DNA from: Candidatus Iainarchaeum sp. | Lineage (GTDB): Archaea > B1Sed10-29 > WALL01 > JAGHAM01 | DNA length: 64,000 bases | Assembly: GCA_021161465.1 (NCBI GenBank) | Contig: JAGHAM010000023.1 | Location: forward strand, 8,895 to 72,894 | Reading direction: 5' to 3' | Notes under the pieces: model-generated | What the model saw: the letters and a program-made list of their open reading frames with translations, nothing else | Told to the model about the DNA's origin: nothing | The model's database searches: none | Made by a program: the position numbers and the translations under genes | Part shown: positions 9,034 to 63,956 of the stretch, one piece after another | Layout: the number at the start of each line of letters is the position of its first letter | Numbering within the stretch: the first letter of the stretch is position 1

Positions 9034-9612
9034 TCATCTTCCCAATAAACCGCGTTCAACTAACTTTTCATGAATAGAGGACACTCCAACATACCAGAAC
9101 CAATAGAAGCCAACCAGCACAACCAGCAGAGTCAGCCTGAAAAACAGCGAGTGCAGGAAAACCATGACTGGAGCTCCAAACCATACGCCAGATGCTAAGG
9201 TCAGGGCAATCCTAATAGGGTTGATTAAAAGCACGAACAAGAAACCAGCAATAGCGCCTACAAACCGGTTTCTCCAGCTCCTGTCCTCGGTTGCCAGTAT
9301 AGCTCCAATCAAAATTGCCAGCTCTAAATCACCAACGCAGAGTGGTAGGATCTCCACAGGTAAAGCGAAAACTCCTGTGAGCGTTGGTGGGTTGGTGCAA
9401 AATGCAGTAGTTGATACACCAAACAAAATCAAAACCCAACTTGTTAAAACAGCAGTAACCCACTCAAATTCGTGCATGAACTGCGAAACTATGAAGTAGC
9501 AAGTCAAACCAAAAACGGATAGAAGAACTAAAAAACGCGCGCCCTTCAGAAGCTCCTGCTTGTTGAAAAGTTTAATGGAAGCTTTCTTAGTACGAGGCGA
9601 ATTCGACACCAT
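9034..9612 (-). CDS. small polytopic membrane protein, candidate exosortase/archaeosortase-like
   Basis: 192 aa, about 6 TM helices. Cys92 lies inside a TM helix (EILPLCVGDLELAIL), followed by conserved-looking Arg residues (R111/R114/R116, R134, R159). The Cys-Arg spacing resembles the exosortase/archaeosortase family. Lies immediately upstream of the large protein with a tripartite C-terminus. Confidence 0.3.
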   Translation of the reverse strand: MVSNSPRTKKASIKLFNKQELLKGARFLVLLSVFGLTCYFIVSQFMHEFEWVTAVLTSWVLILFGVSTTAFCTNPPTLTGVFALPVEILPLCVGDLELAILIGAILATEDRSWRNRFVGAIAGFLFVLLINPIRIALTLASGVWFGAPVMVFLHSLFFRLTLLVVLVGFYWFWYVGVSSIHEKLVERGLLGR

Positions 9613-26600: not shown

Positions 26601-29600
26601 AAACCCTGCCAACCAACTACAAGAAATTCAAGCTGATATTCCAATTCGGCAACACAGCGGGAGAGACTATAAATGCAAAACTTGTCCTGGATGCAAAGGA
26701 CAAGAGCCTATCATTTACCAATGTAACAGTAGATGGTGAATCCAACCCGGGAACAGGCACATACATACAAACTACTGAATTCGAAGTGCCATCAAGTGGT
26801 GCTGAAGTTGTGATAGAAGGAGAGGGAACAACCCAATCAACAAGCAACATGGACATATACTTCTGGGAACAAGACACACCAAGGCCAGACACACCATGGG
26901 CAACCATAAGCTATGGTAAAATTGATTACTCTGCTAGCATTAAAGCGTACGAGAAAGGAGCTGTATTAAAAGGCGTCTCCGAGAATGCAGACGAGGTCAG
27001 AGTCTGGGTTTACAAGAGCGTTGATGATTCTGTATCCAGTATCGGAGGAGGTATTATCGAAGGGGACCATGTCAAGATAGCTTACGACAACAACTCAGTG
27101 ATTGAATGGGCGTCTTTAGAGCCATCTGGACCCTACTTTAAGTACGTAGTCCCTGAAGATAAACCAATCAGGGGAAAACTAACAGCAATCATCACGAGCT
27201 CGAAATTTGGCGAGATTGATGAAACACTAAGCTCGTCTTACGTCAGCTTTACACCGAAAAGCACAAACATAAAAGATTTCCTGAACATGAACTTGGTCTC
27301 TAACGAGGAGAAGACAAAAGATATAATAGTAGCCAGCCACTACAACGAGCCTCTTGATATGACCATAGGAAACATCCAAAAAGACGGATGGAAATTCTCA
27401 CTCGAAACAACTATATACTCACTAAAGCCGGGAACAGCAACAGTGTTCATGAAGAGAGAAACCCAGAAAGGGAGTGGCAAGGTAACCATACCTGCCAAAG
27501 GGAAGGCAGTAATTAAAGTTACCGCAAGCCCTGTTGACGTGAAGTGCAGGTACAACGAAACGGCCTTGCTCCAACTTGATGTGGAGAACGTCAGGAAGCC
27601 TTATGTGTATTCCTTTGCCTTAAACTGTACCAATGGCACTTCCGGCGTAAGTTATACTACTGCAGTACCGACAGACCATATAGTCAGGCTAGACATAGAC
27701 CCATCAACTGTCACGCGCTTTGATTGCTTTAACAATAGTGCTGAGAGTGGATTGGACACAGCGTACCTTTGCGACGCTGAGCAGTTTGGGGTGTCTCTGC
27801 TTGATGCAGCCTGGGCACTTTACACAGACGATTACTCTGTTGAACACTCTTATTTCTATTCACTTGGAAAAGATGAGTTAGGTCAGGAGGGGCTATCACA
27901 AATTCTCAGTAGGTATGGGGACAAATTTGAGATAAGCCATGTATACAACAGTGAGGACTCTGCCAAAGCTACAAAAACTACAGACATAGTCCTAGATGGA
28001 AAAGCTGGTTGTGGCATCAATAAGGTAGTCCTAACTAAGATAAACCATGATGAAGACATCAGGATAACTATAACAACTAACAGCAGTGTTCCATGGTGTG
28101 GTAGAGCAGCCCACGCCTATTTGATAGGCCTGCTAAACTACGACCAGAACTTAAGGCCTACCCTCGGAAAATACTACTCGTTCGATACAAGCATGGAGGG
28201 TGAAAATGTAATAGATGCAATACAGTACGCTAAGAAACAGGGCAACTCCATATCGAACACAATGTTATTCAGCTATGGTTCTGCCGGTGAAAGTTATTCT
28301 GCCCAAACCATAGTCAATGCAAGAGCTGGTGGGAGACCGCAGAGTTACATAAAATACAAAGACTGCGAAATCATGTCCGGCACTGATTGCCCAATATTTG
28401 CGATTAACTTCTTTACAACCCTGAAAGAACCAATAATAGGTTACTTTGATATAGACAACAAGGACGACATACATGTTGGTTTGGTATACGACAGGAGCGA
28501 GATTACCACTGAAGGTGCGGGGAACCAGCTGGACACCTACCGGGCATTATTCATAACCCGGCTCTTGGATTATGCTGTTTCTGGGAATATGGGCCAGGGC
28601 ATATGGATTGGCTCCAACAACAGCCAGATGATTTACATCCCAACGAAAGACACAAGCCAAAATATTGTTGACTTAAGCCCTGTTACGCAAAGAGTTTTGG
28701 TTTATGGTAAGAATTACTATGATGTGGAAAATGAGGAAATTACAGGTAACAGGAGCGTCCACGTGCACATAGACATAGATGACGAACCGCGCTATTGTGT
28801 CGTTGGCAACCTCAAACCAGATGGAACTATAACTGATTCGCAGGAAGAAACACCCGTATTCCAACCAAACAGCAAAGACTGGCCATATGGTATTGATGTA
28901 TTTGACTGGACATTACTACCTGGCAATGGAAGAAAACGGGTTGTAGCTTACTGTATGGATAAGAATGGTGTCACTTCCAGGATAAGTGTGGGTGAGATTC
29001 TACTTGACACTACAGGTATGCTAGTGTTCAGGGGCGAGCAATATCCAAATACACTCAGCATGTACAAACCAATGATAACTAAAGACCTGTTTTATCACTT
29101 TATCGTGATGAATAAATATGGAGAAACTACCAAATGCTGGATGGAATACAAGGATAAAGAGTATATGACAGAAGGGGAGATTAGCTTAGGTACTGCACCG
29201 GAGGATAAAAACATATGCAACAACGGTCAGAACGACAACAGTCCAATTCCTGGAGTCTCAGATAACTGGCAGATAGATGATGGCTGCTGCTATCCTGTAG
29301 GTGGAAATTCAGGAAATGTTGAGGGCAGCGGAACAGAAAAAACATACTTCTTCAATATGCAGGAATTCACCTGCAACAGCCCGATAGTTGAAACGGAAAA
29401 CGAGGAGATTCCTGTAGAGATATGGTGCATGAACAGCTTAGGGCAAAAGAAAAAATTAATTGATGTTAACTTATACAGGCAAAGCACCGACGCACCAATG
29501 TTTGTTCTACCGGGGGACTTTACATTCTCTGTAAATGGAACCTACGAAAACGGTGTTATGACCAGCAACTATGGAGGTCAAGGGTTATACTTTGACAGGA

Positions 29601-31744: not shown

Positions 31745-34700
31745 ATGGCACTTGTAGATATTTACCATCAAATAGAGGACAACTACTATTTCTTCCTTGA
31801 CTGGCTAGATGAAAAAGGAATTCCGATATACAACGTAGTTGACCCAATAGAAGCAAAAGGCATCCCAACGTTCCCACTTGCTGTTGGGATGGTGCTTCTA
31901 ATCCTCTTGCTATTGCTATCCTTAATAATAGGTATGGGCACTCAAGCAAACATGAACGTGAATGTAACCGTTACCACCAATGGCAATGCGCTGGCAGATG
32001 CCTCTGTTGTAGCCATCCAGGATGGGGAAGAAGTGAGTATAAAAACTACAGGTGATGACGGAAAAGTTTCACTCACAATTCCAAAAGCAGAAACGAGAAT
32101 AAACGTAACCGCAGAAGGGTGCCAATCTCAGGAGAAGGAGATAAATGAATCCGGGAACCTGAGCTTTGAACTAACATGTGGGGGAAAACCTGCTGGTTGC
32201 ATACCTATTTCAGCAACCATAAGCATGGTCAGGCTGACTGGTGATGACAACAAAGCACCGAAGAACTGCCACGTAACTATCTTAGATGATAAGGGAGACC
32301 CAACAGGTATAGAATGGCGCGTTGATGGCTCAAAGTTGTATCTTCCTGACCCTGATAAATATTGTATTAAGGAGAATTACACTGTCCAGATTTCATGTAC
32401 TGGGTACAAGCTGGTTGACACAGGAAAAAACATTATGAGTGAAATAAATGGGATGGGTGAGCTTGAGTTGCCATCAACAACTACACCTCCTGAGGACAAG
32501 TGTGCTCTTGGAGAAGAATGGAATGAAACTCTTGGGAAATGTGTAGAGAAACCAGTTACATGTCCAACTGGTGAGAAATGGGACAGCACATTAGAGATGT
32601 GTATTCCAGAACAAGTTGATGACGAGTATTCAATATATGTCATTGTAAAGAACAACAACACAGCCTTGTCTGGGATTCTTGTGACTGCCATAAGCTCATC
32701 TGGAAGTCAGTTAACAGAAGGCACCACCCAGGATTATACAGATAATGCTGGCAAGGCAGAGCTGTCCCTGAAAAAAGGCCAGAAGTTTAAGATAAAAGCA
32801 GAAGATGAAGCAGGAAAGTATTCTATGGTCATAACCAAAGAGTATACCGCTGACGCCACAAAAACCATCAACATCAGCATGCCAAAGGGAAGCCAGACTA
32901 CAATAAGGGTTATTGACAAGGAGACAAAGGAAAGCATTCCTTCTGCAACTGTCCTGCTCTACAAGGGGACTGAGGCATACGCAGCATTTACTACTGATAA
33001 AAATGGAAAAGTTGGTCTGACACTGCCTCCAGGAGTAACATATACCGCTTATGCATATGCCAATGGCTACAAGACCGATAAAGGCACAATCGCCGCTGGA
33101 AGCGCCATTACAATAAGCCTCCAGAAGGTATATGCACTTGAAGCAGGTAACCTAACGCTAAAAGCAGAAAATGCTTTGGACGGAAGCTCTATGGAAGGTG
33201 TTACATTCAGAATTTTCTCAAAGATTGGTAACGTGCCTTATGGTGGGTGCATCACAGGCTCAGATGGCAAATGTGCCATTTACTCCCTGCCAGAGGGCAG
33301 TTATTCTGTATACGCAACACCAAAGGGCAGTTACGATGAAGAGGACGTAGGTTCAGTTGATGTAAAGCATGGGGAAACAGTAGAAGAAACAATTAAGATT
33401 TACCCCTCCACGTTCAAATTAACGGTTTACACATGGCTGAACGGTGGCACCCCTAAGAGATGCGCGTCTGGGGCACATGTCACAATTGGGACTACAAATG
33501 ACATAGGTGTAAGCACCGAGCTAAACGACAGCTACACTGACAACAATGACTGCAAAGCAGAGTTCCATGTTTATAAGGGTCAGGATATCTGGATAAAGGC
33601 AACCTACACAGACGGTGGAAACATTCTCAGGGCAAGTGCCACATACACAGTAACTGGAGAAAAAGAAATAAACCTGATACTAACGCAACCAACAGCTAAT
33701 GTCTCGTTCAGCATGGGCGCGCTGGATATGGCTCCTGGTGATGTAAAGACCGGGACGCTATCCTTTGGTCTCCCATATTATGACAGCGACGGAACCAGGT
33801 ATAAAAACATTGAAATTAAGCTATGGGTTGGTGAAGAGGGGGATACTACAGACGCAGTAAAAACACCAGTCATGATAAACGGTTTTGAAGACTCTAACAT
33901 GCAAGGTGCTGCTGTATACGGGTACAAGAACTACCCGGGGACCACCATAGTTAGCGATACAAGCGGCGAGTACCTGAAATACCTTAAATTTGTAATCAGC
34001 AACAGCTCCGCTTACTACTCCAACAACATCAATACTTCTGTTAACGTGCCGATAAAGTTGAAAGCAAAAAATGCTTTTGAAGCCGACCAAACAATAGTCC
34101 ATGTGAGGGGTAAGTGGACCCCACCAAAAGGAAATCCAATAACTGCCGACTTTGATTTCAGGATAAATCTAACAGCGGGTACAAGCTGGTGCATGCTCCC
34201 TGGCGGAAGTGATTTCAGTGCATTTAAGGCCGGCTTCACGATAACCCCTGATGACAACGAGAGCCACTGGGAAGAGCATATGAGCACCACGAATGGCTCG
34301 GAATTCTACCTTAACATAAGAGCGATAGCCGCCAAGCAGCTTGACAGTTATAAGATAAACATGAAAACCCAGCCATCATATGGGTATTCTGTACTGAAGC
34401 TACTTCAATACTTCATTGGAAAGAATAGCCCACCAACAAATTACAAAGATGTAAACGAAGATGTATCTAGTAGTGGTATGGACCTAGAACCTGCTGACGC
34501 CTCAAAGGGTCTAGGTGACTTATATCAGTTAAACCAGGATGATGAAATCTCTTTGAGAATCAAGCTGAAGGCAATTCACAACGCAACTGGTACCAACTGG
34601 ATAAAACTATTCGATGATGAATCATGCAAGAAATCTTTTGAAATACGGGATGTGACCAACAAACCTACACCACTGCCAAACGTCACGGTTGAGGAGCACT

Positions 34701-37700
34701 ATTTCGTACAAGTTTGTCCACCAGAAGGTTACACAGGAACTATATGTAGATGGGGAGAAAGTGATGCCGATAAAATTGATAACCAGGAACTGGAACTCCC
34801 AACCTACTCGGCAGTATATGGCGAGGGCAGGAACTTTAGCATAAATCTTACCTTCAACAATATCGGTAGCACACCTGCAAACGTCCACATTGAAGCTGTA
34901 GATTCTGTGGGGGGCATAAGCTCATTGCATACGCCAGCAGATTTCACCATCCAGCCAAATAACCAGACAGAAGTTAACATAACTGGAAAGGGCGCTTCTG
35001 CCCAAGCAGGCACGATTAAATTGTACTTGTCCACATCGGCTAATGGCGCTAAAACACTATGGAGAACTATAAAGTATGGACCAGTTGACTATAACATAAC
35101 CTTGTGGGCAAATGCCTCTATCAGCGCTGGCGGAAACGAGCTGAAGGAAGAGTTAGTCAAACAAATAGACAGCGTAAAAGTGGTAGTATTCAGAAACAAC
35201 AATCCCACAACAGGCATAACAAACAATGGAAAAGTAGAATTCAATTACATCGACCCTGTGAATGGGCAGACCACTAAGGAGCTAAGAGGGGTGGATAATT
35301 ATTACATCTTTAACCATGACGCTATGAGTATCACAGCAGGGGATAGGAGTGCTGAAGTACATGTGGAGTATGGTGAGTTCGGAGGCCTAACAAAAGGTTA
35401 CCCCGTGCAGGGGATGGAGGTAACACCAGACGGAACGAGGTTCCCAGCTGATGGAGATTACACGCTGAGTGTGACCAATCTTAGAGAATCCAAGGTTGTG
35501 GGTGTGAACTCATCATGGCTCAGGTCTGCTAACTTTACACTGGATATCACCGGGTTTGATGTAGACAATGCTAAAAACAGAGGGTATGACACAATGATAC
35601 AAGTTTTCATCTACAACAGCACCAATGACCTTGTGAATACAATAACTCCAGATGGTGTCGTGAACATAACCCTGCCTGCCAAGGGAAGAGCGGACATAAA
35701 TGTCACCGTGGGGCTTTTGGAGAACAAGATATCAGCCTGCATCCAGGAACCATTCGTTGGAGAGATAAAGGTAACCCCCTGTTACCAGGACACAAAAACA
35801 TATGAATTCCATTATAGTTGTGCTGAGCTTGTTAGATACCAGCCAGCTAACAGGAAAGTTGAGTACATATTCACAAAAGACAACACAAGCTATACCGAGA
35901 GCCCTGCAATAACAGTGACCTCACTAGCTAACAAAAACCTGAATGTATTATTTGGATTCGAAAAGTATAACTCATGGTTAGACACATCATTCGAAAACTT
36001 TGAAATTAATATAACTACATTCTATCAGAATGGTGCAAAAAAGCAGACGTGCTCCCTAAATACCGAACATGATGGAACTATCAAGTGCGAGTTACCTCCA
36101 AACGGTACAGCGCAGGTGTCCATAAAGGCGAGTATAGATCCTGATAATCCGCCTGAAAAAGGAGACCTTTACATATCTTATCTACATATAACCCCAGATA
36201 GATGGCTTGAAGAGAACTTCACTTTGACGTTTAGTTATAGCGAAACTGGGGAGTACATATCCAAGTACACTGTGCATAGGGACACACATGAACCATTAGA
36301 CATAACCAAAGAAGAGGTAATAGATAATGATAATGTCTGCTGGTTTGGTGCTGGCCATTACACTTTATGCGATAGCACACAACTCTCGAAAGTTATCGAC
36401 GTTATTGGTAAACACATAAATGCGAACGGAGGGCTATTAAGGAAAGAATTTGCATTCGGGAATGATATCGCCACCATTAGCACAATCCAAACAATTGCTG
36501 GAAGCCAGGTGAAGGAAACTGAAGACGGCGCATCATATGGCGATATCGTGGTCAACATATTGACACGAGATAAGAAGATAACCTGTGGTGTGGTAACCAT
36601 AACCGCACAACAGGTAGGGGGGTTAACGCGTGTCAATATAACTGTGGATAAAAACCAACCATGGTGCGATAATGGGGAGGAACCCTTCCTATTCACTGGA
36701 TTAGCTAATTACGACGAGGATTTAGCTGAGAGCACAGGCGCGCCAGTGAAATTTATGAGGTTTGATGGAGACGCTACCGAGTTAAGCAAATTCAGGGATG
36801 CATTTGAGTACATAGACCCAGATTACATCCCAGTAGTCTTTGGATATGCTTATGCTAATGGGGAGGTATTTGATACTGGCAGTGAGAACCCGCCAATAGT
36901 GGTCCACTACAAAGAGTATAATTGCTCAGGGACGCCACCCGAAGGAACCAACGACTGCATAGACCTACCATCGTACTTACAATTCATCTATCGGGATTTC
37001 TACAACAATCCCGACTCACCAGATGGTGTAGGGTACTTTAGTTATCAGTATATAAGTACAACAGAGACAAATAATTTCTTCGTAGGTATAGCATACAAGA
37101 AGGCAATGGACGAAAGCGAACTAGACGAGCTGAGGAGGATACTGGCAAGCAACTTGATAAGCTACTGGACTATGGGAAACACATCTTGTATACAAGATAA
37201 CACAGGTGAGTTAATAGGAGAAAATTTAAATGGCAAAGTTTGCTCGATGATTGGCAAATTACCAAGAGGTGAGGGTGCCATAGACCTTAAAACCTTTGAC
37301 CCTACCAATAGAGGGTTTAAAGACTCAACTGGGAGCGATGGCAAGATTGGGCTGAACCTTACATTCGGTTCAGGTACAGTGTCATGTAGGATATGGAACA
37401 ACTGTGGTTCAAATACCTGTAAAAACGAAACCCTGATAAAAGGAGTAAATTGGGATAAGGATAACACCTATGTAGAAGTGCCTGACTGGACTGTCCCAAC
37501 AGATACTGGAGGAGGGAAACAGATTAAAGCAGAGTGCTATTCTGGTGGATACAAGGGTACTGGTGACCCTGTTTCTGCCGTCGTAGTTGTCGACAAAACA
37601 GCACCTACAGTCAGTGAAGATGAAAACTGTGACAGCGAGCCATGCTTTGAGGAAGGAGATGACCATGACCTGACATTCACAGCCACTGATAAGTATGGTA

Positions 37701-38404
37701 TAGCTTCATGCGAAGCATTTAGGGTCTATAGCGACGGTTCAGTTACACCATTAAGCTGTGGGCGTATAGGTGATTCAGATAGATTCAGGTGCTCTGGTAT
37801 AGAAAAGCCGCCAGAAGGCCAGTACCACCAGTATCCATCAGAGTACTCAGGTGACTGCGGTTCGTACCACCTATCAAGTGATGGGAGGGCGTGTCTTGAC
37901 ATAATAAACTACACCTGCACAGACAAGAATGGGAATACCGCGGAGGATAGGCAGATAAAAATCTTCTGGGGAGAGAGTAGTATTGAGGTACATGTAAAAG
38001 AGATTTACTCCCAGCTTATCAACTTAGCTAATAATGGTGTGGTAGAATACGGAAAGGTGGAACCAATTGAGTCTGGTAAAGCTGTTGTATACAACACAAT
38101 AACCAAAAATGGAGATACTCAATCTGTACCTGTGTACTACACAAGTTCAACTGAAAACGTGATAAAGTTCAACATCACTGGGAAATTTGGCATTAGCGAC
38201 CTTAGTTGCGATGACGCACATATCATAGGGCCTAATAGCGATGAGCTCACTCCCTCACAAGACCACGACTCAGCACCAGGATGGAAAGACTATACACTAG
38301 ATTTCAACCTGGAAAGCGAAGGTGAGTATGTTGTGAATATAACTTGCATAGGAAATGGGAATTACGAGGATACGCCCTCTATGAAAGTGCCCGTAAAAGA
38401 ATAG
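31745..38404 (+). CDS. giant (2219 aa) N-terminally membrane-anchored surface protein, paralog 2
   Basis: N-terminus MALVDIYHQIEDNYYFFLDWLDEKGIPIYNVVDPIEAKGIPTFPLAVGMVLLILLLLLSL is clearly homologous to the N-terminus of the 23636 gene. It shares further internal motifs with it (W.PPKGN; ...PWC...L.NYD.(N/D)L). ACTTTAAATAAT box about 22 nt upstream. Confidence 0.75.
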   Translation: MALVDIYHQIEDNYYFFLDWLDEKGIPIYNVVDPIEAKGIPTFPLAVGMVLLILLLLLSLIIGMGTQANMNVNVTVTTNGNALADASVVAIQDGEEVSIKTTGDDGKVSLTIPKAETRINVTAEGCQSQEKEINESGNLSFELTCGGKPAGCIPISATISMVRLTGDDNKAPKNCHVTILDDKGDPTGIEWRVDGSKLYLPDPDKYCIKENYTVQISCTGYKLVDTGKNIMSEINGMGELELPSTTTPPEDKCALGEEWNETLGKCVEKPVTCPTGEKWDSTLEMCIPEQVDDEYSIYVIVKNNNTALSGILVTAISSSGSQLTEGTTQDYTDNAGKAELSLKKGQKFKIKAEDEAGKYSMVITKEYTADATKTINISMPKGSQTTIRVIDKETKESIPSATVLLYKGTEAYAAFTTDKNGKVGLTLPPGVTYTAYAYANGYKTDKGTIAAGSAITISLQKVYALEAGNLTLKAENALDGSSMEGVTFRIFSKIGNVPYGGCITGSDGKCAIYSLPEGSYSVYATPKGSYDEEDVGSVDVKHGETVEETIKIYPSTFKLTVYTWLNGGTPKRCASGAHVTIGTTNDIGVSTELNDSYTDNNDCKAEFHVYKGQDIWIKATYTDGGNILRASATYTVTGEKEINLILTQPTANVSFSMGALDMAPGDVKTGTLSFGLPYYDSDGTRYKNIEIKLWVGEEGDTTDAVKTPVMINGFEDSNMQGAAVYGYKNYPGTTIVSDTSGEYLKYLKFVISNSSAYYSNNINTSVNVPIKLKAKNAFEADQTIVHVRGKWTPPKGNPITADFDFRINLTAGTSWCMLPGGSDFSAFKAGFTITPDDNESHWEEHMSTTNGSEFYLNIRAIAAKQLDSYKINMKTQPSYGYSVLKLLQYFIGKNSPPTNYKDVNEDVSSSGMDLEPADASKGLGDLYQLNQDDEISLRIKLKAIHNATGTNWIKLFDDESCKKSFEIRDVTNKPTPLPNVTVEEHYFVQVCPPEGYTGTICRWGESDADKIDNQELELPTYSAVYGEGRNFSINLTFNNIGSTPANVHIEAVDSVGGISSLHTPADFTIQPNNQTEVNITGKGASAQAGTIKLYLSTSANGAKTLWRTIKYGPVDYNITLWANASISAGGNELKEELVKQIDSVKVVVFRNNNPTTGITNNGKVEFNYIDPVNGQTTKELRGVDNYYIFNHDAMSITAGDRSAEVHVEYGEFGGLTKGYPVQGMEVTPDGTRFPADGDYTLSVTNLRESKVVGVNSSWLRSANFTLDITGFDVDNAKNRGYDTMIQVFIYNSTNDLVNTITPDGVVNITLPAKGRADINVTVGLLENKISACIQEPFVGEIKVTPCYQDTKTYEFHYSCAELVRYQPANRKVEYIFTKDNTSYTESPAITVTSLANKNLNVLFGFEKYNSWLDTSFENFEINITTFYQNGAKKQTCSLNTEHDGTIKCELPPNGTAQVSIKASIDPDNPPEKGDLYISYLHITPDRWLEENFTLTFSYSETGEYISKYTVHRDTHEPLDITKEEVIDNDNVCWFGAGHYTLCDSTQLSKVIDVIGKHINANGGLLRKEFAFGNDIATISTIQTIAGSQVKETEDGASYGDIVVNILTRDKKITCGVVTITAQQVGGLTRVNITVDKNQPWCDNGEEPFLFTGLANYDEDLAESTGAPVKFMRFDGDATELSKFRDAFEYIDPDYIPVVFGYAYANGEVFDTGSENPPIVVHYKEYNCSGTPPEGTNDCIDLPSYLQFIYRDFYNNPDSPDGVGYFSYQYISTTETNNFFVGIAYKKAMDESELDELRRILASNLISYWTMGNTSCIQDNTGELIGENLNGKVCSMIGKLPRGEGAIDLKTFDPTNRGFKDSTGSDGKIGLNLTFGSGTVSCRIWNNCGSNTCKNETLIKGVNWDKDNTYVEVPDWTVPTDTGGGKQIKAECYSGGYKGTGDPVSAVVVVDKTAPTVSEDENCDSEPCFEEGDDHDLTFTATDKYGIASCEAFRVYSDGSVTPLSCGRIGDSDRFRCSGIEKPPEGQYHQYPSEYSGDCGSYHLSSDGRACLDIINYTCTDKNGNTAEDRQIKIFWGESSIEVHVKEIYSQLINLANNGVVEYGKVEPIESGKAVVYNTITKNGDTQSVPVYYTSSTENVIKFNITGKFGISDLSCDDAHIIGPNSDELTPSQDHDSAPGWKDYTLDFNLESEGEYVVNITCIGNGNYEDTPSMKVPVKE

Positions 38405-44958: not shown

Positions 44959-47250
44959 ATGAAAGGCGTCTTAATTGATGTGGAGAGCGATAACCACATT
45001 ATAAAACTCTTCATAAAGGATACCGAAACAGGGAAAGTTGAAGAGGTAGTGGATAGCTCGTTCTACCCTTATTTCTACCTGCTTGGAGTGGATGAGGAAG
45101 ATGCAAAAAGCCTTGGGGAAGGGCTGAGAGGAATTGAGAGGAGCAAGGGCGCCCTGAAGATAATCGCTGAAAAGCCATCTGATGTTCCATACCTGAGGGA
45201 AAAAGCAAAAGAGATTGGTGAGATACGGGAATATGACATACCATATACTCAGAGGTATCTCATAGACAAAGGTCTGAAGCCCATGAAGCGCTACGAATGG
45301 GTTCTTGATGGGAACAAGCTCATCTCCTTTAAAGAGGATGTAGGTAAGTGGTCTGTAAGCAGGAAAGCTTTTGACATAGAAACCTATAACCCCCAAGGCA
45401 TGCCAAGGCCGTCACAAGACCCTGTTATAATGGCTTCCTTCTGGAATGAGGAACTGGGGAAGGTCATCACATGGAAGCCAGCAAAGGCTAGCTTCGTTGA
45501 GATGGTTGAAGACGAGAAGCGGCTTATAGCCAGGATAACTGAAGAGATAAACTCGGCAGATGTAATTTATACTTATAATGGAGACAACTTTGACCTGCCC
45601 TACATAAAGAAACGCGCTGACAACTATAAGATACCAACAGCCATAGACTTAAGGCGCGGGGGGCAAGGCACAAAAGCCAAGATAAGAGGAAAAATCCACT
45701 TAGATGCCTATCTTGGCGTTAATTTCCTAACAACTATAGGCTGGCTAAAGCTGCCGAGGTACAGACTGGAAGATGTATACAAGGAGTTCACTGGAAAAGA
45801 AAAGCTAGATATGGAGGTAACGGACCTTTGGAAGGACTGGGAGAACGGCACTATAGACAAGGTGACTGACTACTCGCTCCAGGATGCCGAGGCCGCATAT
45901 GTCATAGGCGAGAGACTGCTTCCCCTGTATGTGGAGTTCTGCAAACTCGTTGGGCAAACCATGTTTGATGTTTCAAGAATGAGCGCCTCCCAGATTGTTG
46001 AGCTGTTGCTACTGAAGAAAGCATTCCACAAGAAACAGATAGCCCCAAACAAGCCGACAGAACACGAGTTCGTATCGAGGATAAGAAAGCCAATAAAAGG
46101 GGCGTTCGTGAAGCAGCCCGAACCCGGGCTTCACGAGAACTTAGCCATCCTTGACTTCAGGTCTCTGTATCCCTCCATTATAATAAGCCATAATGTAAGC
46201 CCTGAAACCCTCAACTGCGAGTGCTGCAAAGATGATGGATATGTATCGCCAAACGGTTACCGTTTCTGCAAGAAAAAACGTGGCATAATTCCTGAGATGC
46301 TTGAGGAACTGTTAAGCAAGAGAGTTGAAGTGAAAAAACTGCTTAAGTCAACCAAGGACCCCGAAGAGAGGAAAAGGCTGGACGCAAAACAACAGGCTTT
46401 GAAGATAACAGCAAACGCCACTTATGGATACACACTGTTTGCAAGAGCGCGCTGGTATTGCAGAGAATGTGGTGAGGCCATAACAGCATGGGGAAGGCAC
46501 TACGTCCAGAACCTAATATCCCAGGCCGAAGAAACTGGGTTTAAAGTGCTTTACGCCGACACGGATTCCTGCTTCCTTGAGCTAAGGGATAAGACCAAAG
46601 AAGATGTGATTAAATTCCTCAAGGACTACAACAGCAAGCTACCGGAGGCCATGGAACTCGAGCTTGAAGGCTTTTACCCCAGAGGGATTTTTGTAACTAA
46701 GCGCGAGGGAGGGGCAGCCAAGAAGAGATACGCCCTTATACGCGAAGACGGGCAGGTAGAGATAACCGGGCTTGAGTTTGTTAGGAGGGATTGGAGTGGG
46801 CTTGCCAAAAAAACCCAGGAGAAAGTCATAAGGGCCATACTCGAGAACAAGATTGGAAAGGCCAAAGAGGTAGTTATGGACACGATAGATGCAATCAGGG
46901 AAGGAAAAGTGCCACTGGATGACCTAGTGATATACACGCAAATTAAGCGGAAGATAAGCAAATATGACGCTATTGGCCCCCATGTCAAAGCAGCAAAACG
47001 GCTTGAGGAAAGCGGAGTTAAAGTAGAGCCTGGTATGACGATAGGATATGTAGTGACGCAGGGAGCAGGCAATATAGGTGACAGGAGTTATCCTCCTCAG
47101 TTGATTGGAAACAGGAAACCAGATGTAGACTACTACATAAACAACCAGGTGCTACCCGCAGTTATGAAGATACTGTCAGAAGTAGGGATAAAAGAAGATG
47201 ATTTAAAGATAGGTGGGAAGCAAAGCGACCTTGGCCAATGGGTTGGCTAA
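44959..47250 (+). CDS. polB: family B DNA polymerase
   Basis: Exo I FDIETYN, Exo II YNGDNFDLPY, Exo III YSLQDAEAAY. Pol motif A DFRSLYPSIIISHN, motif B KITANATYGY, motif C YADTDS. 763 aa with no intein-sized insertions. Confidence 0.95.
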   Translation: MKGVLIDVESDNHIIKLFIKDTETGKVEEVVDSSFYPYFYLLGVDEEDAKSLGEGLRGIERSKGALKIIAEKPSDVPYLREKAKEIGEIREYDIPYTQRYLIDKGLKPMKRYEWVLDGNKLISFKEDVGKWSVSRKAFDIETYNPQGMPRPSQDPVIMASFWNEELGKVITWKPAKASFVEMVEDEKRLIARITEEINSADVIYTYNGDNFDLPYIKKRADNYKIPTAIDLRRGGQGTKAKIRGKIHLDAYLGVNFLTTIGWLKLPRYRLEDVYKEFTGKEKLDMEVTDLWKDWENGTIDKVTDYSLQDAEAAYVIGERLLPLYVEFCKLVGQTMFDVSRMSASQIVELLLLKKAFHKKQIAPNKPTEHEFVSRIRKPIKGAFVKQPEPGLHENLAILDFRSLYPSIIISHNVSPETLNCECCKDDGYVSPNGYRFCKKKRGIIPEMLEELLSKRVEVKKLLKSTKDPEERKRLDAKQQALKITANATYGYTLFARARWYCRECGEAITAWGRHYVQNLISQAEETGFKVLYADTDSCFLELRDKTKEDVIKFLKDYNSKLPEAMELELEGFYPRGIFVTKREGGAAKKRYALIREDGQVEITGLEFVRRDWSGLAKKTQEKVIRAILENKIGKAKEVVMDTIDAIREGKVPLDDLVIYTQIKRKISKYDAIGPHVKAAKRLEESGVKVEPGMTIGYVVTQGAGNIGDRSYPPQLIGNRKPDVDYYINNQVLPAVMKILSEVGIKEDDLKIGGKQSDLGQWVG

Positions 47251-47953: not shown

Positions 47954-48907
47954 ATGACTAACAAAGTAAGCAATATATTTAAATATTGTCCTACAAAAGA
48001 TAGGGTCATGGTTGACAAGGAGAAGAACAAAACTGACGAGGAACTTTATTTTGAGGCGGGGAGAATCTCGTTTAAAGCCCTTCAGGAAGGGGCAAAGAAA
48101 ATCAAAAAGGGCGTTAAGCTGGTTGATGTTGCAGAGTATGCTGAAAAGCTGATAAAGGATGAAGGTGCTGATTGGGCATTCCCGGCCAACATATCACAGA
48201 ACGAGCGCGCAGCACACTACACTCCATCTTTTGATGATGAGTCTGTCTTCGGGGATGACATCGTGAAGCTGGATGTCGGCGCGCATATAGATGGTTTCGT
48301 TGGCGACAACGCGCTAACCGTCGACCTAACCGGAAAATACAAAAACTTGGTTAAGGCAACAGAAGATGCCCTAAAAAACGCGATAAAGACTGTCGCCCCT
48401 GGTGTAAAGAGCACAGAGGTTGGAGCTGTAATACAGGAAACTATCGAGAAAGCAGGATTCAAGCCTGTAGAGAACCTAAGTGGCCATGTACTCAGGAAGA
48501 ACTTACTTCACTCTGGACTGTCCATGCCAAATGTGTCATGGGGAAATGAATTTGTGATAGAAGAAGGGATGGCAATAGCAATAGAACCTTTCGCATCCAC
48601 CGGAAGAGGCAGAGTAACCGACGAGAGGCTTGTTGAGATATTCTCGCTTAGGAAGCCAGTGCCCCTAAGGAACACTGAGGCTAGAAAAATTTTAAACTAT
48701 GTGCAAGAGAATTATCCTTATTTTCCATTTGCAGAAAGATGGCTGAATAGTGTCTCAAGTGGGTTCAAATTCAAGGCCGCACTTAAGGAACTAATCCAAA
48801 AGGGTGTGTTCGAAACACATCCAGTCCTAAGAGATGAAGGTCTAGTCGCCCAGACAGAGAGGACAGTTTTAGTTACCAAAGACGGGTGTGAGGTAACAAC
48901 AAAATAA
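47954..48907 (+). CDS. map: methionine aminopeptidase, type 2 (archaeal)
   Basis: Pita-bread fold signature: VKLDVGAHIDGFVGDNALTVDL, GHVLRK..LHSGLSMPN, EEGMAIAIEPF. Length and insertion are typical of MetAP2. Confidence 0.85.
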   Translation: MTNKVSNIFKYCPTKDRVMVDKEKNKTDEELYFEAGRISFKALQEGAKKIKKGVKLVDVAEYAEKLIKDEGADWAFPANISQNERAAHYTPSFDDESVFGDDIVKLDVGAHIDGFVGDNALTVDLTGKYKNLVKATEDALKNAIKTVAPGVKSTEVGAVIQETIEKAGFKPVENLSGHVLRKNLLHSGLSMPNVSWGNEFVIEEGMAIAIEPFASTGRGRVTDERLVEIFSLRKPVPLRNTEARKILNYVQENYPYFPFAERWLNSVSSGFKFKAALKELIQKGVFETHPVLRDEGLVAQTERTVLVTKDGCEVTTK

Positions 48908-48914
48908 AAGAAAG

Positions 48915-49239
48915 CGGACCCGGAGGGAATTCCACTCGCAAAGGAGAAGGGCTTATAAGGAACACATAACGCCCTTACTGCTTTCCATCCCATTAAGGGA
49001 AGGGGCTGATAAGGGGGAACCGTAGGTGCCCCTTATTTTGAACCCCCGATCTTCTGGTTTCTCCCCCTCTCATTAAGAGAGGTACTAGAACCATAAGTTC
49101 TGATACCATCACCCAAAGGACGCGCTAAGGGAGGACTGGAACACAAATTCCAATCCTACCTTAAATCCAAGGGATGTATCGGAACCGTAGGTTCTGATGT
49201 CCGAAGCCAGATGCCTTATCCTAGCTAGGCTACGGGCCC
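48915..49239 (-). tRNA. tRNA-Arg (anticodon TCG) with long anticodon-loop intron and T-loop intron (about 325 nt)
   Basis: Minus strand: GGGCCCG-TA-GCCT-AGCTAGGATA-AGGC-A-TCTGG-CTTCGG(A)-[about 140-nt intron]-CCAGA-AGATC-GGGGG-TTCAAAA-[about 110-nt intron]-CCCTC-CGGGTCC-G. All stems are complementary, with GU pairs. Confidence 0.45.
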
Positions 49240-49314
49240 GTGAATAAGATTATAGACAAAGCTATTTAAGAAAGTTAGCAGGGAAAAATGAAAAAGGTGG
49301 CAGAGTTGTGGTTC

Positions 49315-54423: not shown

Positions 54424-54690
54424 AGCCCCGTAGTGTAGTGGACAATCATATCGGACTCTGGACATCAGAACCTACGGTTCCGATACCTCCCTTAAGGTTT
54501 TAAGGTAGGGTTGGTTCCGATACCTCCCTTGACGGTAGATAAAGTATATCTCCTGTGATGGGGGTGTAGAAGCAGTTGTTCTGGAGTAACTCTGGAACTC
54601 TTGATGCCTCTCTCAATTGATGAGAGAAATCCGATGACAGCGGTTCGAAAGAAGGGTTTTACCCCATCAACGAAATTCCGCTCGGGGCTA
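54424..54690 (+). tRNA. tRNA-Gln (anticodon CTG) with roughly 167-nt anticodon-loop intron and roughly 26-nt T-loop intron
   Basis: AGCCCCG-TA-GTGT-...-TCGGA-CTCTGG(A)-[intron 54463..54629]-TCCGA-TGAC-AGCGG-TTCGAAA-[intron]-CCGCT-CGGGGCT-A. The acceptor, anticodon and T stems are all complementary. Confidence 0.5.
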
Positions 54691-54695
54691 TTAGT

Positions 54696-54877
54696 GGACC
54701 CGTGGTCTAGTCTGGTTTAGGACATCAGCTTCACAGATTCCGTCGGCGCGCAGGGCAAAGCACGAGAACGATGGAATTGAGAGCGCTGGGGATCCCCGGT
54801 TCAAAAAAAGGAAGGGAGACACATTCCCCCTCCCCTTATAAGCCCTCCTCCTTTGGAGGTGAACATCCGGGCGGGTC
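54696..54877 (+). tRNA. tRNA-Val (anticodon CAC) with anticodon-loop intron (about 48 nt) and T-loop intron (about 60 nt)
   Basis: GGACCCG-TG-GTCT-AGTCTGGTTTA-GGAC-A-TCAGC-TTCACA(G)-[ATTCC...GGAATTGAGAGC]-GCTGG-GGATC-CCCGG-TTCAAAA-[intron carrying the GGGAGACACATTCCCCCTCCCC hairpin]-CCGGG-CGGGTCC-A. It starts only 5 nt after tRNA-Gln. Confidence 0.5.
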
Positions 54878-54985
54878 CACTATAGGAGTTACAACTCTGC
54901 TACCATTACATGGGGGGATAATTGACATATACTATATCAGGGGTAACAGGAAATCTTAAATTCACTGCAAAAGATAAAAACTTCA

Positions 54986-56419
54986 ATGTCAGTGACGAGG
55001 AAGAAAACCATCATAATACTAGCATTATTGCTGATAGTAGCGTTTCTAGTGAGAGTGACATTCATCTCACTTGATCTAATCCCTTGGTGGGACAGCCTAG
55101 AGTATGCCTCAAATGCGCGGTTCTTTGCTGGAACTCACATTTATTTCTCGAGCTTGAGGCCTCCTCTCCTATCATTCCTCATGATTCCATTCCATACCTC
55201 CCTTAAGCTCATGGAGGTGTCAAATGCTTTTCTTGCGGTATGTTCACTCTTAATGGCATTCATTTTCTTCAAAGAAGTCTCTGATAGGAGAACATCCTTA
55301 TTAGTAACTGCAATCCTGGCAACCAACTTTTTATTTGCCCTTCGGTCATACCAAATTTCAACAGAGAGTGGGGTAATCCTATTCACGCTTTTAGTACTTT
55401 ATTCATTCGTCAAAGCAGCAAAAGACAAGAAATGGTTTTATCTATCAGGAGTATCCACCGGTCTAGCCTCCCTATTTAGGTACCCTTTATTCCTTGTTGG
55501 GATTGCAGGATTAGCATGGTATCTATATTGGGCACCAGAACGCAAAAACACACGGAGGATGCTCGCTATCTGGGTATCCACTGTATTTTTAGTGACCCTA
55601 CCGTGGCTTGTCTGCAACCAAATCATGTTTGGGTTCCCGATATATAGCATGCTTGAAGGAATATGGGTGTTCTCTCAGACCTACCCAATGTTTCAATCCT
55701 GGAACTACTATCTAACCCATATATTTGAGTTAGCCAATCCCCTCATACTTGTTTTTTCCATTGTTGGATTATTCAGCCATGAAACACTTAGCAAAAAAAA
55801 GAGCCTGCTTTTAGTATGGATGCTAATCAGCATAAGTTTCTTTCACCTCCAGGGAGTTAAGGAAATTCGTTACCTCCTGCCAGTGCTTCCTATGGTTGCT
55901 TTCTTCTCCATTGAGGGCATGAAAAAAGTTTTCTCATTATCAAAAAGATTGAGAGGGAAAGAAGGCTACCTGGTGTTAGCTATTATCCTAGCTAATTTAG
56001 TGTACACTGGAATGTATATGGAGGGAGCTTACAAGGACCGGGTGATGCGTGTGGATGGTGTTGCTATTGCCTCAAAAGTACTCAAGAGCATTACCCAAAA
56101 AGATGCAATAATATATACTAATTTCTGGCCTGAAGTAGCATTCTACTCCGAACGCCATGTGAAGGGGATATTTACCATCACAACCAAGGAAGAATTCATG
56201 GAGAACTTAGGGAAGGCAGACTACGTATTGATAGGAAAACCAAGATTTGAGAATCCTGACATAAACAAAGAGTTCCTCGATTCTGTTGAGCAACTTGAGT
56301 ATGTAGGAGAGTATGGTGGGCCAACAGACTATGATAAAGTGTTTGTGTATAGGGTAAAAGATAGATTCCGGGAGAAAAATCCAGTATTTAAAAACCCATT
56401 ATGGGATGGTAAGTTCTAG
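54986..56419 (+). CDS. GT-C family glycosyltransferase (ArnT/PMT-like), paralog of the 51404 gene
   Basis: 477 aa. N-terminal TM helices plus a C-terminal soluble domain. Architecture is conserved with the 51404..52753 gene. Confidence 0.6.
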   Translation: MSVTRKKTIIILALLLIVAFLVRVTFISLDLIPWWDSLEYASNARFFAGTHIYFSSLRPPLLSFLMIPFHTSLKLMEVSNAFLAVCSLLMAFIFFKEVSDRRTSLLVTAILATNFLFALRSYQISTESGVILFTLLVLYSFVKAAKDKKWFYLSGVSTGLASLFRYPLFLVGIAGLAWYLYWAPERKNTRRMLAIWVSTVFLVTLPWLVCNQIMFGFPIYSMLEGIWVFSQTYPMFQSWNYYLTHIFELANPLILVFSIVGLFSHETLSKKKSLLLVWMLISISFFHLQGVKEIRYLLPVLPMVAFFSIEGMKKVFSLSKRLRGKEGYLVLAIILANLVYTGMYMEGAYKDRVMRVDGVAIASKVLKSITQKDAIIYTNFWPEVAFYSERHVKGIFTITTKEEFMENLGKADYVLIGKPRFENPDINKEFLDSVEQLEYVGEYGGPTDYDKVFVYRVKDRFREKNPVFKNPLWDGKF

Positions 56420-60665: not shown

Positions 60666-60956
60666 GCTCCCGTAGTCTAGTCCGGTTAACCACGAACCGC
60701 AAAATCCGTTCATGCTTTGTGTGATTGCTACGCAATCACACTGTTGGCAGGACGTAGCTGCTCTCTGGGAACAATCCCTTGCAGTAGCAATTTGTGGTAC
60801 GGAAAAGGATAAGGGCCTCTCGAGGCTTTCCTTGATATCTAAGGAAAGCCAAGGAAAGCCCTAGACCCGGGTTCAAAATAAGGGAGGGGGACACATTCCC
60901 CCTCCCCTTATAAGCCCTTCCCCTTTGGAAGAGCATGAACAGTCCCGGCGGGAGCA
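60666..60956 (+). tRNA. tRNA-Glu (anticodon CTC) with three introns (D-loop, anticodon loop, T-loop; about 291 nt)
   Basis: GCTCCCG-TA-GTCT-AGTCCGGTT-[about 140-nt insertion]-GGAT-A-AGGGC-CTCTCG-[intron GGCTTTCCTTGATATCTAAGGAAAGCC...]-(A)GCCCT-AGAC-CCGGG-TTCAAAA-[intron with the GGGAGGGGGACACATTCCCCCTCCCC hairpin]-CCCGG-CGGGAGC-A. The D-region parse is the least certain. Confidence 0.4.
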
Positions 60957-63085: not shown

Positions 63086-63535
63086 ATGACAGACCAGATA
63101 GAATTCTTCGCGCAGTATGGCAAATGGGTTGCAGTGAAAAAGCTGAAAATTGAAAACCAATCAAAGGCAGAAGTAGCGCGCTTCCTAGCAAGCGTGCACG
63201 AGAGCATAGATAGGAAAATGTGGGAGTTCCTTGATGAGGATATCCCATTAGGGGCTTTGGACGAGATAGCTGTTGAGATAACCGGGGCAACTAGAAAAGG
63301 CAAGAAATGGGTAACGCCGCGATTGAATGAGGAAAGGACTATCGAAATCATGGCAAGGCTAAGGAGCACGGGAACCACGAGAAAAATAAAACAACACGTT
63401 AAAAGCAAAGAACTGGTTGAGCTCGCGAAAATTTACCTAACCAGGCGCGCGCTTGAGATGATTGGGGTCAACCTGGAGCCAGACCCAAAGGTTATTGAGA
63501 AGTATACAACCAAAAAAGAACTTGGTGAAGTTTAG
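63086..63535 (+). CDS. hypothetical protein
   Basis: 149 aa, soluble, no recognisable motif. Confidence 0.4.
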   Translation: MTDQIEFFAQYGKWVAVKKLKIENQSKAEVARFLASVHESIDRKMWEFLDEDIPLGALDEIAVEITGATRKGKKWVTPRLNEERTIEIMARLRSTGTTRKIKQHVKSKELVELAKIYLTRRALEMIGVNLEPDPKVIEKYTTKKELGEV

Positions 63536-63675
63536 CCCCCTAACTCTGACAACCACAACTCCCTAAGTTCCTTCGTTTGCACAAAACCGTCTAGGACCTT
63601 ACCAACTATTGCTCGAGTGGCATTTATAAATCTTAGAAAGCAATTTAAAAGTTAAATGTAAAAGTATAGACGCAC

Positions 63676-63801
63676 GGGGTCGTAGGGTAGCCTGGACCAT
63701 CCTACGGGCTTTGGGAGTCTTTTCTGGACGCGCGGGTCAAGCCTGAGCAATGGAAAAGGCAAAAACAGCCTGTGACCGGAGTTCAAATCTCCGCGACCCC
63801 A
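63676..63801 (+). tRNA. tRNA-Gln (anticodon TTG) with about 53-nt canonical anticodon-loop intron
   Basis: GGGGTCG-TA-GGGT-AGCCTGGACC-ATCC-T-ACGGG-CTTTGG-[intron 63715..63767]-(G)CCTGT-GAC-CGGAG-TTCAAAT-CTCCG-CGACCCC-A. The cloverleaf is fully complementary. Confidence 0.75.
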
Positions 63802-63804
63802 CCT

Positions 63805-63956
63805 AAACTTCTTTGGGAAAGAAGTTTAATCAAGAAAAAGAAGGAAACTTCTTTGGGAAAGAAGTTTAATCAAGAAAAAGAAGGAAACTTCTTAGGAAGA
63901 AGTTTAATCCAGAAGGAAGGAAACTTCTGGAAAGGAAGTTTAATCAAGGAATCCAA
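63805..63956. repeat. four tandem copies of a roughly 40-nt unit containing the palindrome AAACTTCTTTGGGAAAGAAGTTT
   Basis: Units start at 63805, 63845, 63885 and 63921 (the last two are degenerate). There are no unique spacers between them. Confidence 0.8.

Follow-up and report, generated by a model that had tools for sequence, protein, structure and literature searches.

Several introns in one archaeal tRNA gene, relaxed introns at position 59/60 and near-identical introns in different tRNAs, the last described in Thermoproteales as 'intron transposition', are all established (PMC4033280, PMC4090602, PMC3239211). In ARMAN-2 (Micrarchaeum acidiphilum), 59/60 introns with a relaxed hBH motif are cleaved in vitro by a broad-specificity epsilon2 endonuclease (Fujishima et al. 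2011, PMC3239211), and for tRNA-Thr(GGU) of Caldiarchaeum subterraneum an intron gain via a mobile genetic element has been proposed (Sugahara et al. 2012, PMC3293823). Here, an interrupted tRNA-Arg(TCG) gene was analysed in a 64-kb stretch of DNA from Candidatus Iainarchaeum sp., which as a whole is referred to as the window. With a probability of about three in four, we consider this locus to be a functional-looking tRNA-Arg(TCG) gene of a DPANN-like archaeon, carrying two introns of the bulge-helix-bulge (BHB) type, of which the one at 37/38 would have grown from a dispersed, apparently mobile 30-nt mini-element and the other by duplication, with copying at the DNA level between tRNA genes.

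As in Thermoproteales (Fujishima et al. 2010, summarised in PMC4033280 and PMC4090602), the tRNAs of the window carry several introns per gene, at 37/38 and at sites such as 59/60, and near-identical introns occur across tRNA specificities, with a recent gain, probably at the DNA level, as the interpretation. Thermoproteales are Crenarchaeota, whereas the organism of the window is DPANN-like, its introns of 108-167 nt are visibly built of repeated hairpin modules, and the core of these introns is a discrete 30-nt element that is abundant outside introns. We know of no report that links the shared intron core of the Thermoproteales families to an element outside introns. ARMAN-2 is likewise a DPANN archaeon with many interrupted tRNAs and relaxed 59/60 T-loop introns; unlike here, the introns used as in vitro substrates were 13 and 25 nt long, and neither shared intron families nor a mobile core were reported (PMC3239211). 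The Caldiarchaeum case also ties tRNA intron gain to integration and recombination of a recombinase-bearing element at a tRNA gene, but it concerns one polymorphic locus and a 1.8-kb element, whereas here a 30-nt sequence is common to introns and many integrated-element ends, and no integrated element lies at the intron loci of the window themselves.

Bacterial REP and Rickettsia palindromic elements are short, dispersed imperfect palindromes with a conserved flank, which lie in intergenic DNA and by RNA genes and are tolerated in frame in protein genes; REP families are species-specific. The 30-nt block resembles them as an imperfect palindrome with sharp boundaries, variable flanks and filled and empty sites, including an in-frame protein insertion, and differs from them in being only 30 nt long, near-identical in contigs whose base composition differs widely, apparently even between phyla, and present in few copies per 64 kb with no associated transposase identified. 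The tRNA-Trp intron of Euryarchaeota encodes a box C/D guide RNA, and the Arg introns are similarly long, structured and of conserved sequence; a guide RNA was rejected for them, as neither a C box (RUGAUGA) nor a D box (CUGA) was found in the precursor, which also gave no Rfam match. What is new here is the DPANN-like lineage, the size and modular build of the introns, a graded series of orthologous introns, and an intron core that is a cross-lineage 30-nt mini-element, present as well in coding sequence and at integrated-element ends. A link between tRNA introns and a miniature mobile element appears not to have been described.

The tRNA-Arg(TCG) gene and its splice sites

A sequence-only reading of the window had proposed a tRNA-Arg(TCG) gene of about 325 nt with two large introns. 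This gene was recovered at exactly 48915-49239, where the joined exons form a cloverleaf, on the minus strand (49239-48915), which that reading had left unstated. When the three exons (Table 1) were spliced in silico, ARAGORN reported a canonical tRNA-Arg(tcg), in which the acceptor stem has 7 bp and the D, anticodon and T arms are normal; the construct used was 76 nt long, including 1 nt past the discriminator. The length of 325 nt is made up of 75 exon nt and introns of 142 and 108 nt. An open reading frame (ORF) of 91 codons (48718-48993, minus strand) spans intron 2 and exons, and gene callers would probably annotate it as a hypothetical protein in place of the tRNA-Arg.

Standard searches of the whole window were largely blind to its tRNA genes. 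ARAGORN in default mode found no tRNA there, its sole report being a spurious 'tmRNA', and Rfam found no tRNA at the gathering threshold or at E<=5; in intron mode, ARAGORN recovered tRNA-Pro and no other tRNA of the window. The 'tmRNA' with its tag peptide (63464-63803, plus strand) overlaps the genuine tRNA-Pro(TGG) and was rejected as a false positive, and the tRNAs that ARAGORN reported at lowered thresholds (at 2825, 4326, 19056, 34776, 60950 and 61964, with introns of 100-344 nt) were dropped because of their poor cloverleaves.

The BHB structures that the sequence-only reading had named as a check at the exon-intron boundaries were found in part: the 3' splice sites are canonical, but the 5' sites of both Arg introns lack the strict motif. 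Using a scan for a 4-bp helix bordered by 3-nt bulges, intron 1 was found to combine the 5-bp anticodon stem, a 3' bulge AA|A, the helix C32-U33-U34-C35/GGAG and an inner helix of 1 bp, and intron 2 the 5-bp T stem, a 3' bulge AU|U, the helix U54-U55-C56-A57/UGGA and an inner helix that is also 1 bp. With a single base pair in this inner helix, which lies on the intron side of the 5' bulge, the Arg motifs are of the relaxed hBH/BHL type and not strict. This relaxed motif, as defined in PMC3239211, is accepted by (alpha-beta)2 and epsilon2 endonucleases and is present in both introns. Their positions are those of BHB introns, 37/38 being canonical and 59/60 a documented non-canonical site (PMC3239211, PMC4090602).

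When the precursor was folded with the cloverleaf, both central helices and free bulges as constraints, the splice-competent fold had -129.4 kcal/mol, against -140.1 kcal/mol for the minimum free energy fold (a gap of 10.7 kcal/mol), and each intron formed a long rod. The central helices covary with the loops that they pair with, both in the anticodon arm (Arg CUUC/GGAG, Gln CUCU/AGAG, Val UUCA/UGAG) and in the T arm (Arg UUCA/UGGA, Val UUCA/UGAA, Gln UUCG/CGAA). In the mechanism that we propose, the 5-bp stem of the arm would stack on a 4-bp helix in which loop nucleotides 32-35 (or 54-57) pair with the four intron nucleotides that precede the 3-nt bulge, and this stacking would present the 3' splice site canonically, while the 5' splice site would lie in a larger loop at the base of the long intron rod; such a relaxed hBH/BHL substrate would be cut by a broad-specificity archaeal splicing endonuclease, followed by exon ligation. 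Among the 26 ORFs scanned, all from the 64-kb window, none contained a splicing-endonuclease domain. A nested-intron model, in which the hairpin module M3 of intron 1 (described below) is removed first and thereby completes a strict BHB, was discarded, as examination by hand gave M3 no BHB of its own in the needed register.

Shared intron sequences and the 30-nt element

The block of the Arg anticodon intron that had been said to recur in tRNA-Gln(CTG) does so over 44 nt with 89% identity (49169-49212 against 54450-54493), and the repeat search found two further matching pieces of these introns beside it. The 21-mer CAGAACCTACGGTTCCGATAC occurs twice in the window and not once in 100 shuffles. 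The 37/38 introns of Arg and Gln keep their colinearity over their full length, with 47/50 identical over the first aligned positions. The T-loop element of tRNA-Arg likewise proved to be related to the T-loop introns of tRNA-Val and tRNA-Glu, the motif CCTTATAAGCCC...CCTTTG being common to all three. Exact copies of CCTTATAAGCCC lie at 48949 (minus), 54834 (plus, Val) and 60906 (plus, Glu), with a one-mismatch copy at 49003 (minus); these 4 matches with up to one mismatch stand against an expectation of 0.42, and a count of 4 was seen in none of the shuffles. Between the Val and Glu 59/60 introns, identity is about 90%. As in transposed intron families, highly similar introns occur across specificities with the likeness confined to the intron, in the Arg and Gln 37/38 introns, in the Arg, Val and Glu 59/60 introns, and between the Gln 59/60 intron and the 59/60 intron of the tRNA-Arg of one relative (locus L070).

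The near-identity of the Arg and Gln introns within this genome far exceeds that of orthologous Arg introns between genomes, and this suggests that one was copied from the other recently. Such copying would be feasible because the two anticodon loops, CUUCGGA and CUCUGGA, are nearly alike, so that nearly the same intron 3' end (GGAG or AGAG) pairs with both. That the introns instead resemble each other through common descent, or through convergence imposed by splicing, without any transfer from one tRNA gene to another, is barely credible: both introns do have to pair with very similar anticodon loops, and hairpins by splice sites are common, but a BHB needs no near-identity over 50 nt, the blocks keep one order along 140-170 nt while separated by indels, and the orthologous introns of relatives are much more diverged or absent. 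The intron mobility or transposition originally suggested is supported by an Arg/Gln likeness above that of orthologues, by intron-free relatives and by the core's occurrence as a discrete unit in unrelated contexts. This view needs one amendment, as more than introns appears to have moved: introns would have been copied whole from tRNA to tRNA, and within them a 30-nt element, which also occurs outside introns, would have been inserted and duplicated.

The two Arg introns are both modular (Table 1). In intron 1, module M1 was detected by nhmmer with E=5e-9 and by the covariance model with 48 bits, and agrees with the metagenome consensus at 29/30 positions. The degenerate M2-like module is the colinear counterpart of the partial module that comes second in the Gln intron. 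M3 scored 37.9 bits with the covariance model, but is itself among the training sequences of that model. The Gln 37/38 intron contains a full 30-nt module that matches the consensus at 30/30 positions (54464-54493) and a partial repeat (54513-54530, an 18-nt direct repeat). The sole sequence shared between M1 and unit A of the 59/60 intron is a 12-nt stretch, ACCTACGGTTCC.

The core shared by the 37/38 introns is a sharply bounded 30-nt hairpin plus tail, ATCAGAACCTACGGTTCCGATACCTCCCTT, which a pattern search found near-unchanged in 56 metagenome contigs, representing 42 distinct contexts. Its consensus, (A)TCAGAACCTACGGTTCCGA[T/G]AC[C/T]TCCCTT, is near-invariant over exactly 30 nt, with conservation at background level directly outside either edge. 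A 9-bp hairpin with a recurrent A.C mismatch takes up the first 21 nt, and the conserved tail the last 9 nt. Compensatory changes were found in the hairpin, at pair 1-21 (AU 11, CG 4, GC 1) and pair 6-16 (AU 17, GC 1), and the covariation score was reached by 0/500 shuffles. In profile and covariance searches of the window and the relatives' loci, strong copies were confined to tRNA introns, in the window those of Arg and Gln, giving 2-3 strong copies in 64 kb of this genome. No copy was found in IMG/VR viral contigs, and a full-text literature search for the sequence, on either strand and in either alphabet, returned no paper. A weak match to the tail, TTCCATACCTCCCTTA, inside a PMT_2 glycosyltransferase ORF (55181-55204, plus; 12.6 bits, E about 0.3) is probably due to chance. 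The element also resembles the 3'-terminal ~25 nt of 16S rRNA, a stretch that contains the anti-Shine-Dalgarno CCUCC; when GAACCTACGGTTCCGATACCTCC was aligned with the E. coli sequence GAACCTGCGGTTGGATCACCTCC, 21/25 columns were identical. The reverse complement of the element carries GGAGGT.

Outside introns, the element lies 0-6 nt past intact tRNA genes of many specificities and past 5S rRNA, antisense at tRNA 5' ends (L016, L019, L038) and antisense at the anticodon-loop end of a tRNA 3' half (L043); one copy lies within the anticodon intron of another tRNA (L060). A tandem array of six copies of its 3' 22 nt with a 31-nt period was found in L038, multi-unit arrays in L016 and L058, and a nested copy in L024. 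Arrangements of the form [X]-element-[X] (L064, L021, L030) look like simple tandem duplications and no arrays with unique spacers were seen, so a CRISPR repeat or spacer was rejected; a leader-trailer BHB at tRNAs followed by the element was also dropped after folding of eight examples showed none. Further copies lie between or at the ends of housekeeping genes, where opposite-strand ORFs enter the element in all three frames. Because of this range of frames, together with invariant third codon positions, the idea that the element encodes a conserved peptide was rejected. In L022 the element (1312-1337, minus) lies between a helicase-type ORF, whose stop codon it supplies, and an ORF that by eye looks like a Hef/XPF-type nuclease, both on the opposite strand; it may have split a single Hef gene.

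A filled and an empty site could be compared in one protein gene. In L027 the element lies in frame within a 258-residue protein (P0241), where it encodes KGGIGTVGSD, and this peptide is missing from the homologues P0242 and P0243 (67% and 62% identity). In the DNA alignment, the 30 nt and one adjoining GAT codon are missing from the emptiest homologue, L072, and in L071, the third homologue, this site holds a different insert of 12 nt. The hairpin CGCCGAAGGCG of L071 (about 2100-2130) sits exactly where L027 carries the element and is near-identical to the mini-hairpin CGCC-NNN-GGCG that constitutes the 16-nt Arg intron of L068; such hairpins may represent a second family of tiny palindromic insertions.

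The element also accompanies integrated elements. It is the first sequence of inserts of 3.1 kb (L026), 9.9 kb (L063) and 8.6 kb (L018), which contain integrases and are bordered by direct repeats of the 3' part of a tRNA or 5S gene (46-53 nt where a tRNA is repeated), and it separates the tRNA-derived repeat from the integrase-bearing insert in L026, L063, L018 and the L013 group. About 20 nt past the element, a tyrosine integrase begins in 14 loci, and a CcdA-like gene converges on the element in 7 loci. Close homologues of the element-linked integrase are labelled Bathyarchaeia, Nitrososphaeria and Parvarchaeota; the element therefore appears to cross phylum boundaries.

These associations raise the alternative, which we regard as doubtful, that the 30-nt block is a protein-binding site flanking the attachment (att) sites of integrated elements and not independently mobile. 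The anticodon loop and the T loop are classic crossover sites of integrases. Consistent with such a site, the block opens the inserts by intact tRNAs in those three loci with their direct repeats, the integrase follows it closely, and the L026 repeat begins in the anticodon loop. In L069 (10410-10735, minus), a second copy of the last 22 nt of tRNA-Arg, from the T loop to the 3' end, lies about 250 nt downstream; as judged from its sequence, this repeat is the signature of a putative scar, left by integration or excision, whose crossover would have been in the T loop, the place of the 59/60 introns. The intron gain via mobile-element integration in Caldiarchaeum is a precedent (Sugahara et al. 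2012, PMC3293823). On the other side, neither an integrase nor a tRNA-fragment repeat was found near the Arg and Gln loci of the window, which are separated by syntenic housekeeping DNA; at least two integrase families accompany the block, which also occurs cargo-free, inside an ORF and within a V-ATPase operon, and anything from about 0 to 50 nt lies between it and the presumed crossover.

It is unlikely, more so than an att-flanking role, that the block is a functional RNA element under selection, such as a protein-binding hairpin or a minihelix-like processing signal, and not selfish DNA. Its pairing is maintained by compensatory changes and its 9-nt tail is nearly invariant, it lies 0-6 nt past tRNA and 5S 3' ends and 2 nt past 5' splice sites, and it is kept in the tRNA-Arg intron of four lineages with 61-68% PolB identity; in addition, a stem followed by ACC resembles an RNase P or tRNA minihelix substrate, and the sequence resembles the 16S rRNA 3' end. 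A transcript-level role is, however, hard to match with copies in both orientations relative to the adjacent tRNA (antisense in L016, L019, L038 and L043), with antisense copies within protein ORFs or at their ends that between them cover all three frames, and with tandem arrays of partial copies and nested copies. A cleavage signal within an intron would, moreover, destroy the precursor, and all tRNA trailers of the window itself lack the element. Its location at the ends of integrated elements, whatever the orientation of the tRNA, and inside ORFs points to a role at the DNA level or to hitch-hiking. A more far-reaching reading, to which we give somewhat less than even odds, is that the block is an undescribed archaeal miniature mobile element, near-unchanged between DPANN-like and Bathyarchaeia-type genomes, that inserts by or in structured-RNA and protein genes, rides integrase-type elements and supplies the raw material of giant tRNA introns.

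Orthologous introns in relatives

The best match of the family B DNA polymerase (PolB) encoded in the window next to the tRNA-Arg has 68% identity and belongs to an unclassified 'archaeon', and the named matches, at 45-50%, are Diapherotrites and Micrarchaeota. For the adjacent M24 peptidase, comparison with species-representative genomes gave relatives at 39-43% and none closer than 43%. The distance of both sets of matches suggests that the organism is a poorly sampled DPANN-like archaeon. The gene order PolB, M24 peptidase, tRNA-Arg and DUF4013/PyrI/PyrB is kept in five relatives, whose syntenic tRNA-Arg(TCG) genes have 37/38 introns of 0 (L069), 16 (L068), 46 (L008), 50 (L010) and 52 nt (L070). 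In the 46-52-nt introns the 30-nt block lies 2-3 nt past the 5' splice site, and the smallest of these lengths equals 16 + 30. Orthologous Arg introns of different genomes agree at about 80% within the 30-nt core and show no agreement outside it. An additional 43-nt T-loop intron, homologous to the Gln T-loop intron of the window, was found in the tRNA-Arg of L070; the T-loop intron is missing from that of L008, L010, L068 and L069, and among the fetched loci the T-loop intron motifs were found in none except L070. The tRNA-Gln(CTG) of L008 is intron-free and adjoins an LPG-synthase gene, as in the window. Together, Arg introns of 0-52 nt in relatives and a Gln gene without intron indicate that the introns of the window grew and spread recently.

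A stepwise route can be proposed from this series. An ancestral short 37/38 intron of about 16 nt, as in L068, would have gained the 30-nt element 2 nt past its 5' splice site, giving the 46-52-nt introns of L008, L010 and L070. In the lineage of the window the element would have been inserted or duplicated again (M1, M2-like, M3) to reach 142 nt, and the composite intron would then have been copied whole, at the DNA level, between tRNA-Arg(TCG) and tRNA-Gln(CTG). A separate T-loop intron family would have spread among Val, Glu and Arg, with a tandem duplication in Arg.

Several points weigh against a functional tRNA-Arg whose introns grew from a mobile element. Both Arg introns fail the strict hBHBh' motif, with an h' of 1 bp and no strict 5' bulge plus inner helix, and it is from structure that we infer splicing by an archaeal endonuclease and ligase as well as tRNA-Arg function. 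The acceptor stem (48915-48928 with 49233-49239) contains G3.U70, where all five orthologues have G3-C70. G3.U70 is the universal identity element of alanyl-tRNA synthetase, and its presence in tRNA-Arg could mean mischarging, a recent mutation or decay. Function instead of mobility could account for the conserved tail of the element and for its retention by the Arg intron in four lineages, and no target-site duplication was seen at the filled and empty P0241 site; metagenome contigs can be chimeric at repeats, but in L027 the sequence runs on without a break to either side. Whether introns were gained or lost is read from few genomes, the closest relative sharing 68% PolB identity.

Given these points, we also considered that the locus might be a decaying pseudogene overrun by repeats, with introns that are never removed, and judge this improbable. 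Its invisibility to standard tools, the very long introns, the relaxed 5' sites and a G3.U70 mismatch unique to this genome would fit decay, but all 75 exon nt form a perfect cloverleaf with conserved D- and T-loop residues, the intron 3' ends are still complementary to the loops, and a promoter-like box and the synteny are conserved. The Gln, Val, Glu and Pro tRNA genes, moreover, are interrupted likewise and splice in silico to canonical tRNAs. A functional-looking gene with a 37/38 intron grown from the 30-nt element remains our preferred reading of the locus.

Other interrupted tRNAs and implications

The features of the tRNA-Arg gene and of the other interrupted tRNA genes of the window are collected in Table 1.

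Table 1. Coordinates of the interrupted tRNA genes of the window and of the modules within the Arg introns
Feature	Position	Strand	Description
tRNA-Arg exon 1	49201..49239	-	positions 1-37: acceptor 5' strand, D arm, anticodon stem 5' strand, loop CUUCGG; by in-silico splicing
tRNA-Arg intron 1	49059..49200	-	142 nt, canonical 37/38; repeated hairpin modules
Module M1	49169..49198	-	30-nt hairpin plus tail ATCAGAACCTACGGTTCCGATACATCCCTT; 2 nt past 5' splice site of intron 1
M2-like degenerate module	49127..49151	-	hairpin GGAATTTGTGTTCC + AGTCCTCCCTT; covariance model 11.3 bits, weak
Module M3	49075..49104	-	ATCAGAACTTATGGTTCTAGTACCTCTCTT; diverged second full copy, read from sequence
tRNA-Arg exon 2	49037..49058	-	positions 38-59: anticodon stem 3' strand, variable loop, T stem 5' strand, TTCAAA
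tRNA-Arg intron 2	48929..49036	-	108 nt, T-loop 59/60; two tandem units
Intron 2 unit A	49036-48978	-	TAAGG..CCTTAT[A/C]AGCCC form plus hairpin
Intron 2 unit B	48977-48929	-	TAAGG..CCTTAT[A/C]AGCCC form plus hairpin; matches Val and Glu T-loop introns
tRNA-Arg exon 3	48915..48928	-	T60, T stem 3' strand, acceptor 3' strand, discriminator G; T-rich tract after
TATA-like CTTAAATAG	49262-49270		~23-31 nt upstream of tRNA-Arg; motif recurs at similar distance in L070
tRNA-Gln(CTG)	54424..54690	+	introns 167 nt at 37/38 (54462-54628), 27 nt at 59/60 (54650-54676)
tRNA-Val(CAC)	54696..54879	+	introns 48 nt at 37/38 (strict BHB, inner helix 9 bp), 60 nt at 59/60 (CCTTATAAGCCC family)
tRNA-Glu(CTC)	60666..60956	+	introns D loop 117 nt, 37/38 34 nt, 59/60 65 nt (CCTTATAAGCCC family); three or four introns
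tRNA-Pro(TGG)	63676-63803	+	one canonical 51-nt intron

All four further tRNAs gave canonical cloverleaves when spliced in silico, and the Gln 37/38 intron has the strict hBHBh' motif, with H=7 and h'=6. For tRNA-Glu, a model with four introns and a 6-nt micro-exon AGGACG gave a better D stem (G10-C25). The reported maximum is three introns per archaeal tRNA (PMC4033280, PMC4090602, PMC3239211), which four introns in tRNA-Glu would exceed. The 37/38 intron of tRNA-Glu contains a 10-nt tandem duplication, AAGGAAAGCC x2 (60841-60860). Downstream of tRNA-Pro, a tandem array of 3.7 copies of a 40-nt unit (63805-63948, plus; hairpin AAACTTCTT..AAGAAGTTT followed by AATCAAG) fills the spacer up to the 5' end of a Leu/Ser-type tRNA at 63961, which is cut by the end of the window; resembling 'hairpin + ATCAA' units also flank the 30-nt element in metagenome locus L064. 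Among the neighbouring genes, the PolB of L010 (10001-13588) and L070 (6001-9600) contains a LAGLIDADG intein, bringing it to about 1195-1199 residues, and that of the window (44959-47250, 763 residues) and of L008 contains none. The window further contains very large ORFs at 4428-9059 (minus), 23636-31666 (plus) and 31745-38401 (plus), of about 1540, 2680 and 2220 codons, and the corresponding giant gene upstream of PolB in relatives gave weak CarboxypepD_reg matches.

Since every tRNA of the window is interrupted, interruption is the normal state of tRNA genes in this genome. Because default ARAGORN and Rfam missed these tRNAs, the tRNA complements of such DPANN genomes are probably badly underestimated; inferences on completeness and codon usage would be skewed as well, and spurious ORFs would be called over tRNA genes. 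One syntenic tRNA gene here offers graded introns of 0, 16, 46-52 and 142 nt, and the 30-nt element is a concrete marker common to introns, integrated-element ends and ordinary insertion sites. With this series and this marker, intron gain through selfish elements at the DNA level can be tested directly in genomes and population metagenomes. If the block is indeed a miniature mobile element, tRNA introns would grow and multiply here by selfish-DNA insertion and DNA-level recombination. The sharing of the hairpin between introns and these other places suggests that selfish DNA is one source of tRNA introns.

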